DNA of 64,000 bases from the NCBI GenBank assembly GCA_964016885.1, contig OZ024742.1:153264001-153328000 (forward strand), read 5' to 3'. Below are positions 11,149 to 64,000 of the stretch, piece after piece. Every line of letters begins with the position of its first letter. Positions within the stretch are counted from its first letter, which is position 1. This DNA is from Eledone cirrhosa (taxonomy: Eukaryota). The notes below the pieces were generated by a model. It had not been told where the DNA came from, did not search any database, and was given only the letters and a program-made list of their open reading frames with translations. The position numbers were made by a program, and so were the translations under genes.

Positions 11149-11198
<50 letters not shown>

Positions 11199-11204
<6 letters not shown>

Positions 11205-11417
11205 CATAACAGATTAGAGTTTAAGCAAAAATAGCTGCTTTCAGCCTTAACGGGATCTTCTGAAGATCTCGTTGAGGGTGAAAGAGAAAGATTCTTTGCT
11301 TAAACTTTAAGCTGTTATTTTAATAAATATTTACTCTACGGTCCTCATATATTTGATATATATTTTTCCTTATCGAGCCCTCTTTCGGATTTTAGTCTTA
11401 ACATTTATTAATATTAC
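11199..11417 (+). mobile_element. Small (TA)n-embedded fold-back element centred on a CTGAAGA hammerhead-like motif
   Basis: TAACAGATTAGAGTTTAAGCAAA pairs with TTTGCTTAAACTTTAAGCTGTTA, and CTTTCAGCCTTAACGGGATCTTC pairs with GAAGATCTCGTTGAGGGTGAAAG. TA runs flank both sides. The tail recurs at 50914-50952. Confidence 0.6.
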
Positions 11418-11437
11418 TATATATATATATATATATA

Positions 11438-13974
11438 TATATAATCAATAACAAAGAACGCCTATAGCATATGCATATCTTTACTTGCTAACATTGTTTC
11501 ATCCGCACTATAAGTGGGACTCATCAGAGCATAAAGGTTAATTACATACCACACAAGCAATAACAAATCCAAGACATTGAAGAAAAAAAGAATTAAAAAT
11601 AATAAAAGATAAAAGATATTGAGGAAGTAAAAATAAAAATAAAAATAAAAATAAACATTGAAAAATAAACAATGAAAAATAATTGAAAAATAAGGGGTGC
11701 TATCAGTCACAGTTGGGTGGGGTGCTGTCAACATATAGTTACATACAAGCATACACATGGATAAGAGAACAGACAAGAATAGATAAGATAGATAGGATTA
11801 GGTAAGAGTAGATAAAAAATAGGTGAAAAATAGGTAAAAAATAGACTTATAATATATATAAGAAAATATAAAAAAACATACATATAGAATATAAAATATA
11901 CAGATAATAGTGATACAGGGTAAGGAATGAAATAAAATAGAATAAAATAATATAAAATTAAAATTAAAATTATATAAAATAGAATATAATATAATATAAT
12001 AATAAAATAAGATAAAATAAAATAAAATAAAATAAACTAAAATAAAATAAAATAAAATAAACTAAAATAAAATAATATAATATAAGATATAATTAAATAA
12101 ATAAGATAAATAAAATTAAATAAAATGAAATGAAATAAAATCAAATAAAATAAAATAAAGTAAATTGAGATAAGATATATATTTTTTTAGAATATATTTC
12201 TTGAATATATCAGGGGCCCACGAAGGCACTAAGTGTCACAGTTATCAGTATCACTTGATCATTGCAATGCAATGGAGACGTCCCAGGTTGGGCAGTCTCA
12301 AAAGTTCACTCGAAAGTCACGGGTGTGCATTCACACAGTTGAGCGGTGGGGTAATCACAAACCGGTTCACACCCGGGCAGGAGTCCAATGGTCAACAGAG
12401 GTACATCGAAGGAAGGTAGGAGAATTCACGTGCAGCAGCAAGAGGCAGACAGGTGGGCCGAAAGCAAGCAGGTGCAGGCGGGCTAGCCGAAAGCAAGCAG
12501 ACACAGTTGGGTCAGGCGGCTTAATAGGCATACTCAACAGCGCATACAAAAGATATATAAAAAATAAAAGATATATAAAAAATAGCTTCAAGAGCCAATA
12601 TCATGAATTCACCGCATTGGGACATCTCAAGATTATACACACCAATATGTTCAGCACGTATATGCACATATACACACCACATGCATATGCAGAGACGGTA
12701 TACATATATATATATTTTTATATACAGACATATACAACCACCTACACCCATACACATATAAATTTATACACAGACACACACGCACACACACACAGCGTAG
12801 GACACCCGGGTCAAAGCTGATATTAAACACAGAAATAACACATTAGGCAAGACCCACCACCACGGATAATACATTCAAAATAAATACATACGATGAGATG
12901 CAGTAAAATAAATCAAATTGAAATCCTACGGAGATAATCATGTCCGCACGTGCCATTGCCCGATTCAAGTGTACACAGACCGTTAGTTACTACGGAGGGC
13001 TATCGGGGCCAAAACGTTACTTTCGGGATAATAACAACGACCGTCAATATATGGAAGGTCAATCGTGCTAGAAAGACTACAACCCCGGGCAAGAGCTCCC
13101 AGAAGTCAGCCTGTAGATCTTAAACCACAGAATAGGAGGGCAACACGTACATGTGCCACGTATCTACTGCTTACGGCGAGATGGCGCAGGTCCGCCCACA
13201 GTTACAGGCTAAATTTCTATTTGTGCAGCCTATATCACAGTACACGCTCTACATAGATACATTACATCATAACTCATGCGCATACAGAGGTACAGATCCG
13301 CAAGATACACGTCGGGATAGACCCACCAATGCACCAATGGTGGGTAGGCGAACGTGGATGGGTTACATCCGCTGTGCCAAACAGGGGTGCTTATTAACAT
13401 ACACACCCACTCACCTGTACACCGCAATATCCAGATCAATATTCTCCCGCAGGCATACGTATACACTCACTGACTCATATACATAGAAGACAAACAATAG
13501 GAGACAGTTACACACAATAAGAGACAGTTACACAAGATAGCCCAACTGGAGAATTAAGGAAGTGCTAGCTAATAGGTTTAAAGTAGAAGAAAGAGCTTAA
13601 TATTCGGTGGGGGCAAGAGGAAAATATTTCTGACTTTCTGTTTAGTAGAGGGCATTTAGCAAATATAATAGAGTGGGATTCGGCAAGGCATAGGTTACAT
13701 ACTCTATTATGAGGAGTATATGGATGGGATTAAGCAACCTGCCGCCAAGTAAGTGTGTAATGTGTTCGTGCATTTTTAAGTTGTGGACGTACGCTGCCAA
13801 GGAGGTGGAGTTCCTCAGTTTATTGTGTCTAAAAGTGCACTGGTGAGAGTTAAACCTGGTCTTAAAGGGGGTGGAGGTTGATCCTATATAGGTTTTAGTG
13901 GACGCCGTAGTTACCACATCACACGCGTAAACTATGTTTCTAATAAGGCAGAAACCATTCAGGGGCCAGCCTGA
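11438..13974 (-). repeat. 2.5-kb inverted copy of the element's 3' part (GIY-YIG C-terminus, 3' UTR, pLTR)
   Basis: Mirror ORFs in the track (12233-12820+ vs 17684-18271-; 13151-13486+ vs 17018-17353-) differ by only a few residues. The junction is CAGGGGCCAGCCTGA|TTATTTTATCTACTC at ~13974. Confidence 0.97.
11479..11536 (-). ncRNA. Type I minimal hammerhead ribozyme (pLTR copy 1)
   Basis: Reverse complement reads CTTTA-TGCT-CTGATGA-GTCC CAC TTATA GTG C GGAT-GAAAC AAT GTT-AGCA-AG-TAAAG. Confidence 0.85.
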
Positions 13975-14451
13975 TTATTTTATCTACTCTTACCTAATCC
14001 TATCTATCTTATCTATTCTTGTCTGTTCTCTTATCCATGTGTATGCTTGTATGTAACTATATGTTGACAGCACCCCGCCCAACTGTGACTGATAGCACCC
14101 CTTATTTTTCAATTATTTTTCATTGTTTATTTTTCAATGTTTATTTTTATTTTTTATTTTTATTTTTACTTCTTCAATATCTTTTATCTTTTATTATTTT
14201 TCATTCTTTATTTCTTCAATGTCTTGGATTTGTTATTGCTTGTGTGGTATGTAGTTAACCTTTATGCTCTGATGAGTCCCACTTATAGTGCGGATGAAAC
14301 AATGTTAGCAAGTAAAGATATGCATATGCTATAAGCGTTCTTTGTTATTGATTATATCACGGCTCTGTCCTCAGACATCGAGCTAACCTTATACTGCCTG
14401 TTGGATAAGTGGAGTATTATACACCCCTGATCCTCTCCCTAGTATACTATA
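13975..14451 (+). repeat. 5' pseudo-LTR of the PLE
   Basis: Near-identical to ~18688-19171 (TTTATCTACTCTTACC...CCTCTCCCTA(G/C)TATACTATA). Confidence 0.93.
14260..14317 (+). ncRNA. Type I minimal hammerhead ribozyme (pLTR copy 2)
   Basis: Core CTGATGA at 14269-14275. Stem II is GTCC/GGAT plus CAC/GTG, and GAAA lies at 14296-14299. Stem III is only AC-AAT-GT, with a GUU cleavage triplet at 14304-14306. Stem I is TGCT/AGCA extended by CTTTA/TAAAG. Confidence 0.87.
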
Positions 14452-14519
14452 CGGCTCCCACTGGTTGAGCTTAAACTTTGATATACGTGGATTTGTATCC
14501 TTGTATATTATCAGGCAGT

Positions 14520-16939
14520 ATGCTAACAAAGACATACTTACCAATTTCCTTGAAGAATATTCCCACCACCCCCCCACTAAAATCGCATATGAGAAATCAC
14601 TGATAACTAGCATAAACTCCTTCGTAAAACGTGTTCGGTGGCGTGCGTTCCATTTTGATGAGAAGTATGATAGCCCTGAAGAGAAGCGTAGTTTTAATAA
14701 TTATGGATTTAAGACATATAGGAGCCCCCCCCCCCGCATAACAGCCTGTTGGATAACTTCGAAAGTGAGCTATTATCCCTCGTTAGGAATATTAGATATA
14801 AAAAATCTAGATGTACCAATAAATTTCAGAGTAAACTAAGTTCTATCGTTAGGGACTTTAGGGATAATAAATCCATTCTAGTCCCCTCTGACAAAACTAA
14901 AAACTTATATAGTATGGATTATAAAACCTATCGCGGCTTCATCTATAATGAACTACATAGGAACTACAAAAAAACAACGCAGAGTAATTTAGATAATATT
15001 AATCTGGAGGGGTATAACATAGTGGTAAAATTAGGTCTGGATAAACACACTCAGCCTTATTACCCCAAGCAGCCTAGATTCACCCTCAAGGACCACAAGG
15101 AAAATTTTATTAGCAGACCCTCAGTTAGGCTTATCTGCCCCTCCAAGTCTGACCTGGGGATTATTAATAAGGGAATCTTGGATAGCGTTATTCCCCTGGT
15201 TAGAGAAAAAACTTTCCTTGAGCTTTGGGGTAACACTAGTGAAGTCATTAGGTGGTTCTCTACGGATTGTGGTCGTGACTCACTCAGATTCATCCAATTT
15301 GATATTGATGCTTATTATACATCTATATCTCCTATTATCCTCAATAAGGCCCTTATCCTAGCCATGCAGAGGGGGGCAATTACAAGGCCACAGATAGATA
15401 TTGTTCTCGCTGCACGTAAAAGCATTATCATGTTTGAGGATAATCTATGGACGAGAAAAAACACACCTGATAATTTTGACATTACTATGGGGTCGAGTGA
15501 TTCTGCTCAGGTCACCGACTTAGTTGGGCTATACCTCCTCAATGAACTGCATAGTAACTTCCCATTCCTTAGGGGCGGGTTGTACCGGGATGACGCCCTA
15601 CTCTCCATAGATACTAGTAAGTATAATATAGTGCGCATTAGGAAAAAGCTGCATAGCTTTTTTAAAACCTTTAACCTATCCATTATGGATATAAATGATA
15701 GAACTGTGAACTTCCTGGATGTTACATTGGACTTGGATAACCATACGTACACACCGTACCATAAGCCTAATGAATTGCTGACTTACGTGAATACCAACTC
15801 TAACCACCCTAGGTCGGTCATCAGCGGTATACTGAAGGGCGTATCTAACAGAATAAGTTCACTCTCACATAGTGAAGCGGCGTTTGACTCGCAGGCTGAT
15901 TACTATAATGATGCCTTAGCTAGATCCGGCTTTAGGGACAAATTGTATTATACCCAGGGAAATAATAGTCCTAATAGTAGCTCTACCAGTGTTGTTATAA
16001 CACATAATATGTCCATTGGTAATAGAGGTGTCGCGAATGGGAGGGTTCTAAATGCCGGTGGAATGAACCAGCAGGGCACCATTAGTCTAAGTAATAGCAA
16101 TGGTAGGACTCGCAGCTCCACGCATAAACTAGGTGAGCATAGTAACCGTAGAAATAATAATGCTAATAATAGTGATGGAAATAAAAAGAATAAAAAGAAT
16201 AGAAGAAGATTGAATACATACTTCAACCCCCCTTTTAACTCTGAAGTGGCTATACATATTCCTAGGGCCTTCTTCTCTGTGTTAGAAAGGAACTTCCCTC
16301 CTGGTAATAGGTACCACTCTATCCTCAATAAGAATGTTGTTAAACTTTCGTATTCTACAACCCAAAATCTGGCCTCTCATCTGGCCATTACTAATAATAG
16401 GAAAATAAAGGAAGGCCTGGACAACCTAAGCGTAGGGGAAAACACGGTAGTGGACAGACGGGGCCGGAACACAAGTGGTGATCATTCTGAGAATAGCATC
16501 ACCAGAAATTGTAACTGTAGAAGGGCTTCAGGCTGCCCCCTGAATGGTTTCTGCCTTATTAGAAACATAGTTTACGCGTGTGATGTGGTAACTACGGCGT
16601 CCACTAAAACCTATATAGGATCAACCTCCACCCCCTTTAAGACCAGGTTTAACTCTCACCAGTGCACTTTTAGACACAATAAACTGAGGAACTCCACCTC
16701 CTTGGCAGCGTACGTCCACAATTTAAAAAAATGCACGAACACATTACACACTTACTTGGCGGCAGGTTGCTAAATCCCATCCATATACTCCTCATAATAG
16801 AGTATGTAACCTATGCCTTGCCGAATCCCACTCTATTATATTTGCTAAATGCCCTCTACTAAACAGAAAGTCAGAAATATTTTCCTCTTGCCCCCACCGA
16901 ATATTAAGCTCTTTCTTCTACTTTAAACCTATTAGCTAG
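14520..16939 (+). pseudogene. PLE reverse transcriptase / GIY-YIG endonuclease polyprotein (~805 aa once 3 homopolymer frameshifts are repaired)
   Basis: Motifs in order: MLTKTYLPISLKNIP; YEKSLI..RVRWRAF..GFKT..PP; VPSDKT; FIQFDIDAYY; MGSSDSAQVTDLVGLYLL; GGLYRDD; VNFLDVTL; CNCRRASGCPLNGFC; NIVY..YIGSTSTPFKTRF..H; and after the last shift WRQV..CNLCLAE..LLNRKSEIFSSCPH..TAG (16937). The longest open segment is ORF 14749-16773. Confidence 0.92.
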
Positions 16940-18687
16940 CACTTCCTTAATTCTCCAGTTGGGCTATCTTGTGTAACTGTCTCTTATTGTGTGTAACTGT
17001 CTCCTATTGTTTGTCTTCTATGTATATGAGTCAGTGAGTGTATACGTATGCCTGCGGGAGAATATTGATCTGGATATTGCGGTGTACAGGTGAGTGGGTG
17101 TGTATGTTAATAAGCACCCCTGTTTGGCACAGCGGATGTAAGCCATCCACGTTCGCCTACCCACCATTGGTGCATTGGTGGGTCTATCCCGACGTGTATC
17201 TTGCGGATCTGTACCTCTGTATGCGCATGAGTTATGATGTAATGTATCTATGTAGAGCGTGTACTGTGATATAGGCTGCACAAATAGAAATTTAGCCTGT
17301 AACTGTGGGCGGAACTGCGCCATCTCGCCGTAAGCAGTAGATACGTGGCACATGTACGTGTTGCCCTCCTATTCTGTGGTTTAAGATCTACAGGCTGACT
17401 TCTGGGAGCTCTTGCCCGGGGTTGTAGTCTTTCTAGCACGATTGGTCTTCCATATATTGACGGTCGTTGTTATTATCCCGAAAGTAACGTTTTGGCCCCG
17501 ATAGCCCTCCGTAGTTATTAACGGTCTGTGTACACTTGAATCGGGCAATGGCACGTGCGGACATGATTATCTCCGTAGGATTTCAATTTGATTTATTTTA
17601 CTGCATCTCATCGTATGTATTTATTTTGAATGTATTATCCGTGGTGGTGGGTCTTGCCTAATGTGTTATTTCTGTGTTTAATATCAGCTTTGACCCGGGT
17701 GTCCTACGCTGTGTCTGTGTGCGTGTGTGTCTGTGTATACATTTATATGTGTATGGGTGTAGGTGGTTGTATATGTCTGTATATAAAAATATATATATAT
17801 GTATACCGTCTCTGCATATGCATGTGGTGTGTATATGTGCATATACGTGCTGAACATATTGGTGTGTATAATCTTGAGATGTCCCAATGCGGTGACTTCA
17901 TGATATTGGCTCTTGAAGCTATTTTTTATATATCTTTTATTGTTTATATATCTTTTGTATGCGCTGTTGAGTATGCCTATTAACCCGCCTGACCCAACTG
18001 TGTCTGCTTGCTTTCGGCTAGCCCGCCTGCACCTGCTTGCTTTCGGCCCACCTGTCTGCCTCTTGCTGCTGCACGTGAATTCTCCTATCTTCCTTCGATG
18101 TACCTCTGTTGACCATTGGACTCCTGCCCGGGTGTGAACCGGTTTGTGATTACCCCACCGCTCAACTGTGTGAATGCACACCCGTGACTTTCGAGTGAAC
18201 TTTTGAGACTGCCCAACCTGGGACGTCTCCATTGCATTGCAATGGTCAAGTGATACTGATAACTGTGACACTTAGTGCCTTCATGGGCCCCTGATATATT
18301 CAAGAAATATATTCTAAAAAAATATATATCTTATCTCAATTTACTTTATTTTATTTTATTTGATTTTATTTCATTTCATTTTATTTAATTTTATTTATCT
18401 TATTTATTTAATTATATCTTATATTATATTATTTTATTTTAGTTTATTTTATTTTATTTTATTTTAGTTTATTTTATTTTATTTTATTTTATCTTATTTT
18501 ATTATTATATTATATTATATTCTATTTTATATAATTTTAATTTTAATTTTATATTATTTTATTCTATTTTATTTCATTCCTTACCCTGTATCACTATTAT
18601 CTGTATATTTTATATTCTATATGTATGTTTTTTTATATTTTCTTATATATATTATAAGTCTATTTTTTACCTATTTTTCACCAATGT

Positions 18688-19164
18688 TTTATCTACTCTT
18701 ACCTAATCCTATCTATCTTATCTATTCTTGTCTGTTCTCTTATCCATGTGTATGCTTGTATGTAACTATATGTTGACAGCACCCCGCCCAACTGTGACTG
18801 ATAGCACCCCTTATTTTTCAATTATTTTTCATTGTTTATTTTTCAATGTTTATTTTTACTTTTATTTTTATTTTTATTTTTATTTTTACTTCCTCAATAT
18901 CTTTTATATTTTATTATTTTTCATTCTTTATTTCTTCAATGTCTTGGATTTGTTATTGCTTGTGTGGTATGTAGTTAAACTTTATGCTCTGATGAGTCCC
19001 ACTTATAGTGCGGATGAAACAATGTTAGCAAGTAAAGATATGCATATGCTATAGGCGTTCTTTGTTATTGATTATATCACGGCTCTGTGCTCAGACATCG
19101 AGCTAACCTTATACTGCCTGTTGGATAAGTGGAGTATTATACACCCCTGATCCTCTCCCTACTA

Positions 19165-19171
<7 letters not shown>
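18688..19171 (+). repeat. 3' pseudo-LTR of the PLE
   Basis: Direct repeat of 13975-14451, ending in a long (TA)n. Confidence 0.93.
18980..19037 (+). ncRNA. Type I minimal hammerhead ribozyme (pLTR copy 3)
   Basis: Core and stems identical to 14260-14317. Confidence 0.87.
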
Positions 19172-19290: not shown

Positions 19291-19855
19291 ATTAATTAAG
19301 CAAAACAAGACCACACATTTCACAATGAAGATATTATTAACAGATTGTCAACATATTTTAGTTTGATGTAAGGAATGTTGAGAATAATAATAATAATATT
19401 AATAATAATAATGTCCGTTTACAATTGTTTCGCTACTCCATATAATATTTCTGGATCAGATGACTATATATCGTTATTGAGCTAGTTCAGTTGAAAATAA
19501 TTAACATATGTAAAAACAGACCGGCTCATCGGAACTTCAAAGGAATATAAATTAAAATAAGGAGCGAATGTTACATAATGTAATGTTCCATATATTGGTA
19601 TTTCACTATTGTGTCGTGGTTGTATCAATATTTTAAATATGTTAATTATTTTCAATTGAACCAGATCAATAATGATATATAGTGATCTGATCCAGAAATA
19701 TAATATGGAGTAGCGAAACAATTGTAAACGGACATTATTATTATTAATATTATTATTATTATTCTCTACATTCCTTACATCAAACTAAAATATGTTGACA
19801 ATCTTTTAATAATGTCTTCCTTGGGAAATGTGTGCTCTTGTTTTGCTTAAATAAT
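19291..19855. mobile_element. Fold-back element with ~220-bp inverted arms and a hammerhead-like motif
   Basis: 19291-19509 pairs with ~19638-19855. Both arms carry GCGAAACAATTGTAAAC, and the spacer has GTT-CCGATGA-GC on the minus strand. Confidence 0.75.
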
Positions 19856-20345: not shown

Positions 20346-22950
<2,605 letters not shown>

Positions 22951-51357: not shown

Positions 51358-51520
51358 TGTACACACATATATATATATATGCATACATATAAATATCCAT
51401 GAATATAAAAACACACACACACACACGCGCGCATATATATATATATATAAGTATGTATACGTGCATACAGATATGTATACATACGTACAGTAGTATGTAT
51501 ATATATAGCTACATGCACAT

Positions 51521-51585
<65 letters not shown>

Positions 51586-51589
51586 TATA

Positions 51590-51978
51590 GATTTACCGAA
51601 CAGTTATTACAATGCTCGGTGTGTTTGTAAACTAACATCCCGAATTAAGCTGTACAGTGTTTAGCAACCATCGTTGCCCTTTTGTTCAACACTGACACAG
51701 GAACGATGTACTAGTTTCAAGCTTATTACCTATCGTCAGCACCGTATACCTTCCTGCCAGATGATTGAACGTTTGAAAGAATATACTTACCTTATGCATA
51801 TTAACGGCTGAGCAGCCCAATTTGCATATCGAGAGAGTTGCTCGGCCGGGGGCATCGAAAACGATAAATGTTGTCAGTTTTGAACAAAAGGGAAACGATG
51901 GTTGCTAAACACTGTACGGCTAATTCGGGATGTTTGTTTACAAACAAACCGAGCATTATAATAACTGTTCGCTAAATC
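51590..51978 (-). mobile_element. Fold-back mini-element (~108-bp arms) with internal hammerhead
   Basis: 51590-51697 pairs with 51872-51978, in a TA-rich context. Confidence 0.85.
51698..51756 (-). ncRNA. Type I minimal hammerhead ribozyme
   Basis: Minus strand: CAGGAA..CGGTG-CTGACGA-T AGG TAATAAG CTT-GAAAC TA GTA-CATCG-TTCCTG. Stem III is the palindrome ACTAGT, with a GUA cleavage triplet. Confidence 0.8.
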
Positions 51979-52239
51979 CATGCGTACATATATATATGTG
52001 TGCATGTATGTATATATATATACATACTACTGTAGTCTGTATACATATATGTATGTACGTATACATACTTATATTTAAGTAACAGACGTACTAAGAGTGA
52101 ATGAGAAATAAAATTTCGTTTCCTTCTTTTCCATTTATATATATATAAATATGTGAGAAAGTTAATGTGTGTGTGTATATATGTATATTTTCCCATGTGC
52201 CAAGGACATAGCTGAACATATTCTTGCTGCAAAATTCAC

Positions 52240-55949: not shown

Positions 55950-56795
55950 GTAAATATGATAATAAGGGCGCTGCGGAGTTGCAAATGGGTTACATATGAA
56001 AAAAGTTTGTCCTTCATCAGTGATCTTCCAACTATCATAGGTATTTCATCGCTTTAAAGACCATATACCTCCGGTTGGTGCGAGCAACGGCTAAAGAAAG
56101 TCGTTGGGACACGTAAATAAAGGGGACGCGAGGGTAAACAAACAAAATGGTGAGGCAACAGAAAGTGAGGAATAAGGAGACAAGTCCCAGATTTATATGA
56201 ATTTAAGTTCGGTGAAATCGTGAACGAGAGAATAAAGACCATCAAACCTGGTTGAAATGTGAGCAAGGAAGGAATTTCGCACAGGTCTAACGGGAGGAAG
56301 AAGGGGTCTGGTCTGCGAATTCGGTAAACATAAGTTCTGTGAAATCCTGGACGAGAGAGAAAAAATTACGACCAGCTTGGCCGAGAATGTGAGAGAAAAG
56401 AATTACTCACAGGTCAAGCGGGAAGAAAGAGGAGGAGGAGGAGAGGTAGTGACAGAGAATGAGTGAGTGAAGGGTGAGGTGAGGAAGAGGCTAACAGAGA
56501 GAGAGACTGCTAGAAAGGGTAAAGATATATAGAACGAAAAAGACGGTGTAGCAGCAGAGGAAAAAATATGTGTAAATATGATAATAAGGGCGCTGCGGAG
56601 TTGCAAATGGGTGCCTTATTATCATATGTACACATATTTTTTCCTCTGCTGCTACACCGTCTTTTTCGTTCTATATATCTTTACCCTTTCTAGCAGTCTC
56701 TCTCTCTGTTAGCCTCTTCCTCACCTCACCATTCACTCACTCATTCTCTGTCACTACCTCTCCTCCTCCTCCTCTTTCTTCCCGTTTGACCTGTG
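55950..56795 (-). mobile_element. Non-coding element with 42-bp terminal redundancy and ~185-bp inverted arm
   Basis: TGTAAATATGATAATAAGGGCGCTGCGGAGTTGCAAATGGGT occurs at ~55950-55991 and 56571-56612. Segment 56408-56591 pairs almost perfectly with 56613-56795. Confidence 0.75.
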
Positions 56796-62267: not shown

Positions 62268-62869
62268 CTATAAACTATGCCCATAGAATAATTTCATAAG
62301 ATCCATATCCTCCCCCAATTAGCATAATCAACTATACAAAAAACCAAATAAACCAGGCTATGAGATTAAAAGGCACCTATGAAGAAATAATAGATAAATA
62401 AACGACATCCATCTATTCGCGATCAACAGCTATAGAATATTTACCCATTATTTCAATAGCACGTGGAAATCGATTAAATATATCGTCAACCATACACACT
62501 TGGGTATAACATTAAAGTTAGAAGAACAAATGCATATACAAATACGTTCGCTTTCGTAAATATCCTCTCAAGGATAAATTCTCGAGCTTCGAACTCATCA
62601 GGAAAGAAACTCATTTGGACAAAGATTTTTCTTAAATGATCCCCGCCAGAAACGAATTCAAAATGGCTAAGAACTGTGACGTGGCAGTGGTAAAGTCAGA
62701 AAGAATGTGATTGGTGCCTTACGGCTAGTGGGCTGGTTGCTAGAAAGCGCAGCCTAATATTGCATAAATTGCATCTCAACCTTATGGGAGATTATCAGAT
62801 ATAAATATTTATATATACACAAACTAGACAAAGTCATAGATATGTTTTTGGCAGCCATTCACGATGTGG

Positions 62870-64000
62870 CTCAATGATGGAACACATTCCATTATGATAA
62901 AAACAAATCTAACAATGTTAATAATACTAACAATGTTTGACTCCTTCGGCTTTTAAACCTTTAGAAGCCCCCCTCATAACACACTACTAAACTCATTTGA
63001 AAATGACCTAATAAAACTAGTTAAGAACATTAAATACAATAAGCACCGTAATAGAAACAACACCTTCTTAAACAAACTTAACACATCTATTAATGAATTC
63101 AAAACTAGTAATAACATTATTGTACATGCGTATAAAACTAATAACGTATACAGCCTAGATTATAATACTTATAGAAAGTTTATATATAATGAACTACATA
63201 AAAGCTACAAGAAAACTACTCTGAATAACTTAGAAGATATTAATATAGAGGGATATAATATAGTATCTAAACTAGGACTTCAGAGGCATACACAATCATA
63301 TACCCCAAACCCACCCTAGATTCTCTCTGAAGGACCATAAGAAGGACGTCATTAGGAACCCCTCGATTAGACTTATCTGCCCTTCCAAGTCTGACATTGA
63401 CATTATCACTAAGAAAATTTTAGATAAAATCATCCCACAGATTAAACACAAGATGTACCTTAAACAATGGGGAAATTCGGGTGAAGTTATTGAATGGTTC
63501 AAAGATATCAAGATTAACAAGGACAAAAAATGTATCCAATTTGATATCAATTCATACTACACCTCTATTTCTCCTATCCTATTAAATAAGGCACTAATCA
63601 TGGCCATGAACAATAGCGACCTGACTAGAACCCAGATTGATGTCATTCTTGCGGCCCGTAAAACCGTAATCACCTTTGAAGACCAAGTATGGACCCGCAA
63701 GGATACGCACAACAACTTTTACATAAACATGGGGTCTAGTGACTCGGCGCAGGTCACTGATTTGATCGGCCTATACTTACGTAATGAAATCCATAAGCAC
63801 ATTCCATACCTCAACGGTGGTTTGTACCCCGATGATGCACTTCTACTTTTAGAATTTAAAAAATTCAATATAGAAAGAACTAGAAAACTATTGCACAATA
63901 CATTCAAAAACTATAACCTTAGTATCACCATGGACAAAAGCACTAAAAACGTTAACTTCCTAGACGCCACCCTTTACCTAGACTCAAAGATATATACACC
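62870..64000 (+). pseudogene. Degraded Naiad-type PLE RT running off the window end
   Basis: WNTFHYD..FGF*TFRSPPHNTLLNSFENDL..TYRKFIYNELH..RLICPSKSD..CIQFDINSYYTSISPILLNKAL..MGSSDSAQVTDLIGLYL..GGLYPDD..VNFLD, collinear with the 14520 ORF. It contains stops and frameshifts. Confidence 0.92.

Follow-up and report, generated by a model that had tools for sequence, protein, structure and literature searches.

The element at positions 51448-52137 of the window, a 64,000-nucleotide stretch of the Eledone cirrhosa genome (contig OZ024742.1), is best explained as a non-LTR retrozyme copy, two-armed and decaying, from an abundant family with a 435-nt unit, likely mobilised by a Penelope-like element (PLE); we put the probability of this reading at roughly 0.85. 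The family is built from a tandem unit and carries a hammerhead ribozyme motif with covarying stems, and its insertions feature (TA)n targets, two fixed 3' end sites (one per arm), and variable junctions. The initial annotation had described an apparent MITE with PLE geometry and no ORF. The geometry was right, and the proposal that this is not a true MITE is supported by variable siblings, (TA)n at both ends, and a one-sided tail; both that diagnostic tail and the known class of non-LTR retrozymes had been overlooked.

Alignment to the family majority unit resolves the whole insertion into two head-to-head arms of the non-coding tandem unit. Borders initially placed at 51590 and 51978 were thus too narrow, and the low-complexity continuation of both arms, out to 51448 and 52137, is part of the element. 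The inverted arms themselves are real, with the left arm downstream of the minus-strand ribozyme as had been described, and between 51590-51697 and 51872-51978 complementarity is 92.6% over 108 bp. Arm A (51448-51870, minus strand; placed by alignment and end class) is one near-complete unit (unit ~434-435 plus 1-378) that contains an internal TA expansion and ends at the fixed A site. Arm B (51871-52137, plus strand) is a 5'-truncated unit (171-435 plus 4) that lacks the ribozyme, ends at the fixed B site, and is 91% identical to the majority unit. Their 5' ends meet in a head-to-head junction at 51869-51872 (unit ~435/1 against 171). Arm B alone carries the tail, the sequence that separates end site A from end site B (52072-52137, plus strand), which adds about 66 bp without a counterpart on the left arm and measures 61 nt in the majority unit. 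The 3' end of each arm sits in (TA)n, with target tracts at 51433-51447 on the left and 52138-52147 on the right; a target site duplication is unreadable in such sequence. Apart from TA-repeat frames, the element contains no ORF of at least 120 aa, and none with reverse transcriptase (RT) and GIY-YIG domains. The two arms have one rare variant in common. Overall, the window copy is a damaged, otherwise ordinary member of its family.

Sequence and family comparison place a type I hammerhead motif at 51698-51756 on the minus strand, directly next to the left arm on its inner side. The CTGACGA/GAAA core, ACTAGT stem III, GUA site, and bipartite stem I noted initially are all present. Read from 51756 to 51698, the 5' strand of stem I consists of CAGGAA, a GGTATA bulge, and CGGTG; CTGACGA (51739-51733) and GAAA form the core; stem III is the palindromic ACTAGT with 2 bp; the cut at the GUA site is predicted between 51709 and 51708; and the 3' strand of stem I consists of CATCG and TTCCTG. 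The description "well-formed", however, passes over stem II, which has a U-U closing pair, an AAUA loop, and, at 51729 (minus strand), a substitution that turns the family C-G pair into G-G and is rare among the copies (5/241). In run X1, whose contigs show neither strand nor ends (as is true of all four runs used), the pairing base occurs at this position in 99.4% of contig depth. ViennaRNA predicts an alternative, non-hammerhead fold for the window copy, with probabilities of 0.01-0.02 for the proximal stem I pairs, under a model that does not include the 2-nt loop of stem III. Rfam returned no hammerhead match for the window, the element, or one sibling. Judged from the sequence, the G-G mismatch likely impairs the ribozyme of this copy.

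Exact matches across the 3.0 Gb searched number 10,108 for the 32-nt ribozyme core and 3,856 for a 30-nt tail motif; the reversed control of each has none, and the core motif is therefore not a product of chance. The unit, a majority of 362 pieces, is 435 nt long and non-coding, and copies range from dimers to long tandem arrays. We mapped 195 loci and excluded as biased the 35 that had been chosen for resembling the window insertion or the junction in it. The other loci, all within the initial 85 Mb of a single contig, comprise 179 distinct pattern-picked insertions: 94 contain direct copies only, and 85 are head-to-head, their 5' end abutting an inverted copy that is itself 5'-truncated. The siblings with other arm lengths or tandem arrays that the initial annotation had suggested looking for are therefore present, along with the direct-only copies, and LTR structure is absent from the mapped loci. 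Inner breakpoints differ among copies and are spread evenly over the whole unit, and gaps or overlaps at the inner 5' ends are mostly 10 nt or less. The ribozyme of the window copy does begin at the first base inside the left arm, as first reported, but this position is not fixed; the ribozyme would lie there because the cDNA of the second arm stopped there. A 16-nt perfect palindrome occurs upstream of the ribozyme at unit 79-94 (window ~51775-51790), and the junction of one locus, L030, falls on it. Identity within an insertion exceeds the best outside match in only 8 of 89 arm pairs, so the family copies are too old for a test of within-insertion identity.

The outer ends follow a strict rule. 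Each classed 3' end lies at one of two sites, A (unit 378) or B (439), separated by 61 nt give or take a few TA nucleotides. Setting aside the 25 of 85 inverted insertions that have an unclassed end, 58 of the other 60 pair one A end with one B end, two are B/B, and none is A/A; both B/B cases belong to one local duplication (L093). In the ribozyme-picked set, which is unbiased for the tail, every insertion is A/B (22/22; P about 5e-8 for independently chosen ends). TATATA directly follows 166 of 204 classed ends. Either arm may exceed one unit (A arm, 21/58; B arm, 24/58), and in 47/58 the summed arms are longer than one unit and overlap in sequence. Arm pairs mismatch at 143 of 1,757 subfamily sites (8%) versus 36% in random pairs. 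These sequence patterns indicate that the outer ends are the PLE "tail" footprint, with two fixed sites and one of each per insertion. As the ends are fixed and unequal, a Penelope-type enzyme likely made the insertion from an RNA template.

Stem II closes with U-U in 236/241 family copies, and one stem I pair varies among subfamilies (U-G 110, G-U 74, and A-U 42 of 241). The core is intact in 91/115 tail-picked copies, and none of 27 subfamily-diagnostic sites lies within the 31-nt core. Inserted copies decay alike inside and outside the core (2.4% against 2.6%) with no visible selection, and together these observations place selection on source copies only. Cleavage itself leaves no genomic trace, since 5' ends at the cleavage site do not pile up (2/264 versus 3.6 expected); ends at unit 170-173, just past stem I, number 5 versus 2.4 expected, which is not significant (P=0.10).

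A sister family with a unit of 465-470 nt, 62% identical, was discovered in flanking sequence, and its core has 9,276 genome matches. Copies lie at L129:380-760, L169:2370-2950, and L290-L309. Stem II of the sister ribozyme has a canonical G-C closing pair; core, loop, bulge, and stem III are kept, while stem I and II pairs are swapped. In eight hand-picked sequences spanning both families, 6 of 12 pairs in stems I and II have changed on both sides. The sister tail measures ~70 nt, and the A/B rule holds in 10/10 classifiable cases among 17 arrays. These arrays are very young and two-armed, with up to 32 ribozymes. In the youngest, the two arms together comprise 18 full units, all identical and all containing three clustered A>G changes that are missing from the 8 other arrays compared. 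A degenerate ribozyme pattern recovered the sister family alone among the 100 of 5,318 matches listed. Further hammerhead families, many with U-U closing, occur as inverted pairs or 310-bp tandems at seven loci (L053, L082, L083, L102, L128, L144, and L159). In the window, short palindromic or inverted elements at 19291-19855, 11191-11333, and 56541-56662 are possibly ends of other two-armed insertions.

The window also harbors a near-complete, ORF-bearing element at 11439-19171, which we take to be a PLE from its RT and GIY-YIG motifs together with the hammerheads in its pLTRs (14269 and 18989, plus strand; 11527, minus strand). Its frame of 683 aa at 14722-16773 has frameshifted ends and no Pfam family. 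Like the retrozyme it is two-armed, with an inverted arm of 2.5 kb, a 94-bp tail, and (TA)n at both ends, and its family is young and high-copy, with many copies that retain open frames of 800-870 aa. GIY-YIG-like fragments occur at 21219-21853, and another hammerhead motif at 62601 (minus strand) lies beside a PLE-like ORF fragment at 62957-63319 (plus strand). For comparison with the retrozyme, 150 PLE candidates were scored of 27,928 places. Homology of the unit to pLTRs was absent from 14 PLE loci, which represent a few related families, and no ORF-type continuation lay beyond site B in any of the 30 loci read out of 234, where tandem continuation, TA, or unrelated flank was seen instead. 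A retrozyme copy adjoins a PLE end inside a shared (TA)n tract in 3 of the 14 PLE loci (L227, L228, and L232), suggesting that such tracts are insertion hot spots. Autonomous PLEs have a similar GCTC...GAGCT hairpin after each end site (pLTRs of L228, L232-L234, and L236; window 14357-14451), a candidate protein-binding signal, and the retrozyme has other hairpins at its end sites.

We propose the following route for these insertions. Tandem copies would be transcribed, and the ribozyme would cut the RNA, probably as a dimer because stem III is palindromic and only 2 bp long; palindromic helix III and dimers have been described elsewhere (PMC4209133). A PLE protein, probably itself a dimer, would then nick a (TA)n tract on both strands; of the two cDNAs, each primed from a nick, one would start at site A and the other at site B. 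Both would end at random points and be joined head to head, leaving inverted arms with a tail on one of them. In keeping with this, experiments with a purified PLE protein showed cleavage and extension of both strands, with initiation at two internal RNA sites that delimit the tail (PMC11167929). An inverted, 5'-truncated copy with a one-sided tail is regarded as a PLE signature (PMC8557442, PMC3846280), and the ORF-bearing PLE of the window has the same layout. Against this reading, the PLE loci and B-end flanks surveyed yielded no autonomous partner, and the tail of ~60 nt (sister, ~70) exceeds the 30-40 bp published for PLEs, for which inverted copies and (TA)n targeting are likewise reported (PMC8557442, PMC3846280, PMC8969392). 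The lack of a pile-up of 5' ends at the cleavage site and of visible selection on inserted cores, together with the DNA-level growth of long arrays, also weigh against it.

Alternatively, the inverted arm could stem from fold-back or self-priming of a single cDNA or antisense template, rather than from priming on both strands. Self-priming from junction palindromes has been argued for Penelope palindromes (PMC3846280), and a few junctions in our sample are near-palindromic (L010, L038, and L136). Most junctions, however, unite unrelated unit positions, the longer arm may be either one, and fold-back alone leaves the end of the second arm at the other fixed site unexplained; we regard this origin as unlikely. 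In L1 twin priming, head-to-head inversions form with short microhomologies. A SINE-like element with a LINE partner and priming of this kind would share the inversion and microhomologies, but poly(A) is absent, both priming sites are fixed, the arms overlap and sum to more than one unit in most classed insertions, and the same footprint marks an ORF-bearing PLE, all of which makes it very improbable.

A true MITE or foldback DNA transposon with a captured ribozyme would fit the 108-bp complementary arms, the TA flanks, and a junction common to four other loci. We give it next to no chance of being correct: the arms are unequal because of the tail, inverted arms are missing from 94 of the 179 sampled insertions, junctions range across the whole unit, and tandem arrays exist. 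Moreover, three loci that share the window junction (L005, L007, and L017) have their A and B ends on opposite arms relative to the window copy, and they are therefore separate events. A MITE-like spread of this junction was rejected, as only five loci, window copy included, have it among 10,108 cores; the initial annotation had named uniform, TIR-bounded copies as what would count against its view, and the copies found are non-uniform, which refutes the MITE reading.

Within the preferred reading, a PLE-mobilised retrozyme, the nature of the template can be narrowed. Many arms are longer than one unit and extend past the cleavage site, which means that either a circle or an uncut multimer served as template. 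Rare variants present in both arms (n=27) include 11 sense A>G changes and no T>C, a bias that fits reverse transcription of edited RNA and is suggestive only; the overall excess is not robust, with P=0.004 when insertions are counted, 0.05 when sites are counted, and 0.16 under a stricter filter, and this speaks against the reading. Periodic shared variants in 3 of 6 long arrays tested mean that later DNA duplication accounts for at least part of the growth of long arrays, and a purely rolling-circle origin is rejected for those three. We give a circular template about even odds. More specifically, and tentatively, a PLE protein dimer could grip one circular ribozyme RNA at two sites, roll round it twice, and prime both (TA)n strands, a model to which we would assign somewhat less than an even chance. 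If it is true, each two-armed insertion preserves in the genome an event of reverse transcription from circular RNA, and the pairing of one A end with one B end accounts for PLE inverted repeats plus tail. The same retrozyme could instead be copied from linear uncut multimers or from two RNA molecules, with the ribozyme selected for another step or carried as a passenger. Ribozyme cleavage is dispensable for PLE insertion in vitro (PMC11167929), junctions do not pile up at the cut site, and periodic variants point to DNA-level expansion; on the other side, 18 identical units with three private A>G changes in one sister array fit a single edited monomer template, and related retrozymes build up as circles (PMC7229834). 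A route with no circle is plausible, if short of probable.

Cervera and de la Pena (2020; PMC7229834) define non-LTR retrozymes and name PLEs as candidate mobilisers. Li, Clavereau and Pollet (2026; 10.64898/2026.07.22.740005) support a PLE origin in vertebrates by co-occurrence and pLTR homology. Mobilisation of animal retrozymes by PLEs has so far been proposed on such grounds; the family described here displays the PLE footprint directly, in a near-absolute one-A-one-B rule across thousands of short copies. It bears on how the inverted repeats and tails of PLEs arise, and offers, for in vitro work, a template of 435 nt whose start sites are mapped. Two-armed copies are also prone to misannotation as MITEs. 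The word "inverted" does not occur in the main text of the former paper, nor "tail" in that of the latter, and our literature search, which covered mainly openly accessible papers, found no account of two-armed retrozyme insertions or of a one-A-one-B rule. The components are known; the two-armed footprint is new relative to the retrozyme literature examined.

Finally, the family can be set against four known systems. Like MITEs, it is short and non-coding with inverted arms and TA flanks; unlike MITEs, its arms are not fixed termini, and its copies are non-uniform and mostly tandem or direct-only. With the non-autonomous, PLE-derived Chlamys elements such as MRC1 it shares multicopy head-to-tail insertions, although those elements have a 3' end resembling that of an autonomous partner and are described as mostly lacking canonical hammerheads (PMC8557442). 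Published PLEs likewise feature partial tandems, 5' truncation, an inverted adjacent copy, a tail at one end, microsatellite targeting, and a hammerhead inside the repeat, whereas here there is no ORF, the tail is ~60 rather than 30-40 nt, and the repeat unit is the whole element. Metazoan non-LTR retrozymes are the closest match: each has a non-coding, low-GC tandem unit of a few hundred nucleotides with one type I hammerhead, in thousands of copies from monomers to multimers, and PLEs in the same genome. The family here, analysed at the DNA level, differs in a unit slightly above the reported 170-400-nt RNAs, in (TA)n targeting, in the strict one-tail rule, and in the two-armed form of about half of the sampled insertions; it also differs from the 24/57 Xenopus families with a TE match (10.64898/2026.07.22.740005) in having no pLTR homology in the 14 PLE loci compared. 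At 435 nt, it nevertheless fits the class size of a tandem non-coding unit of ~150-450 bp, and its helix II, closed by U-U, and its helix III of 2 bp match those of the axolotl ribozyme HHR_Amex2, which cleaves better as a dimer (PMC7229834).
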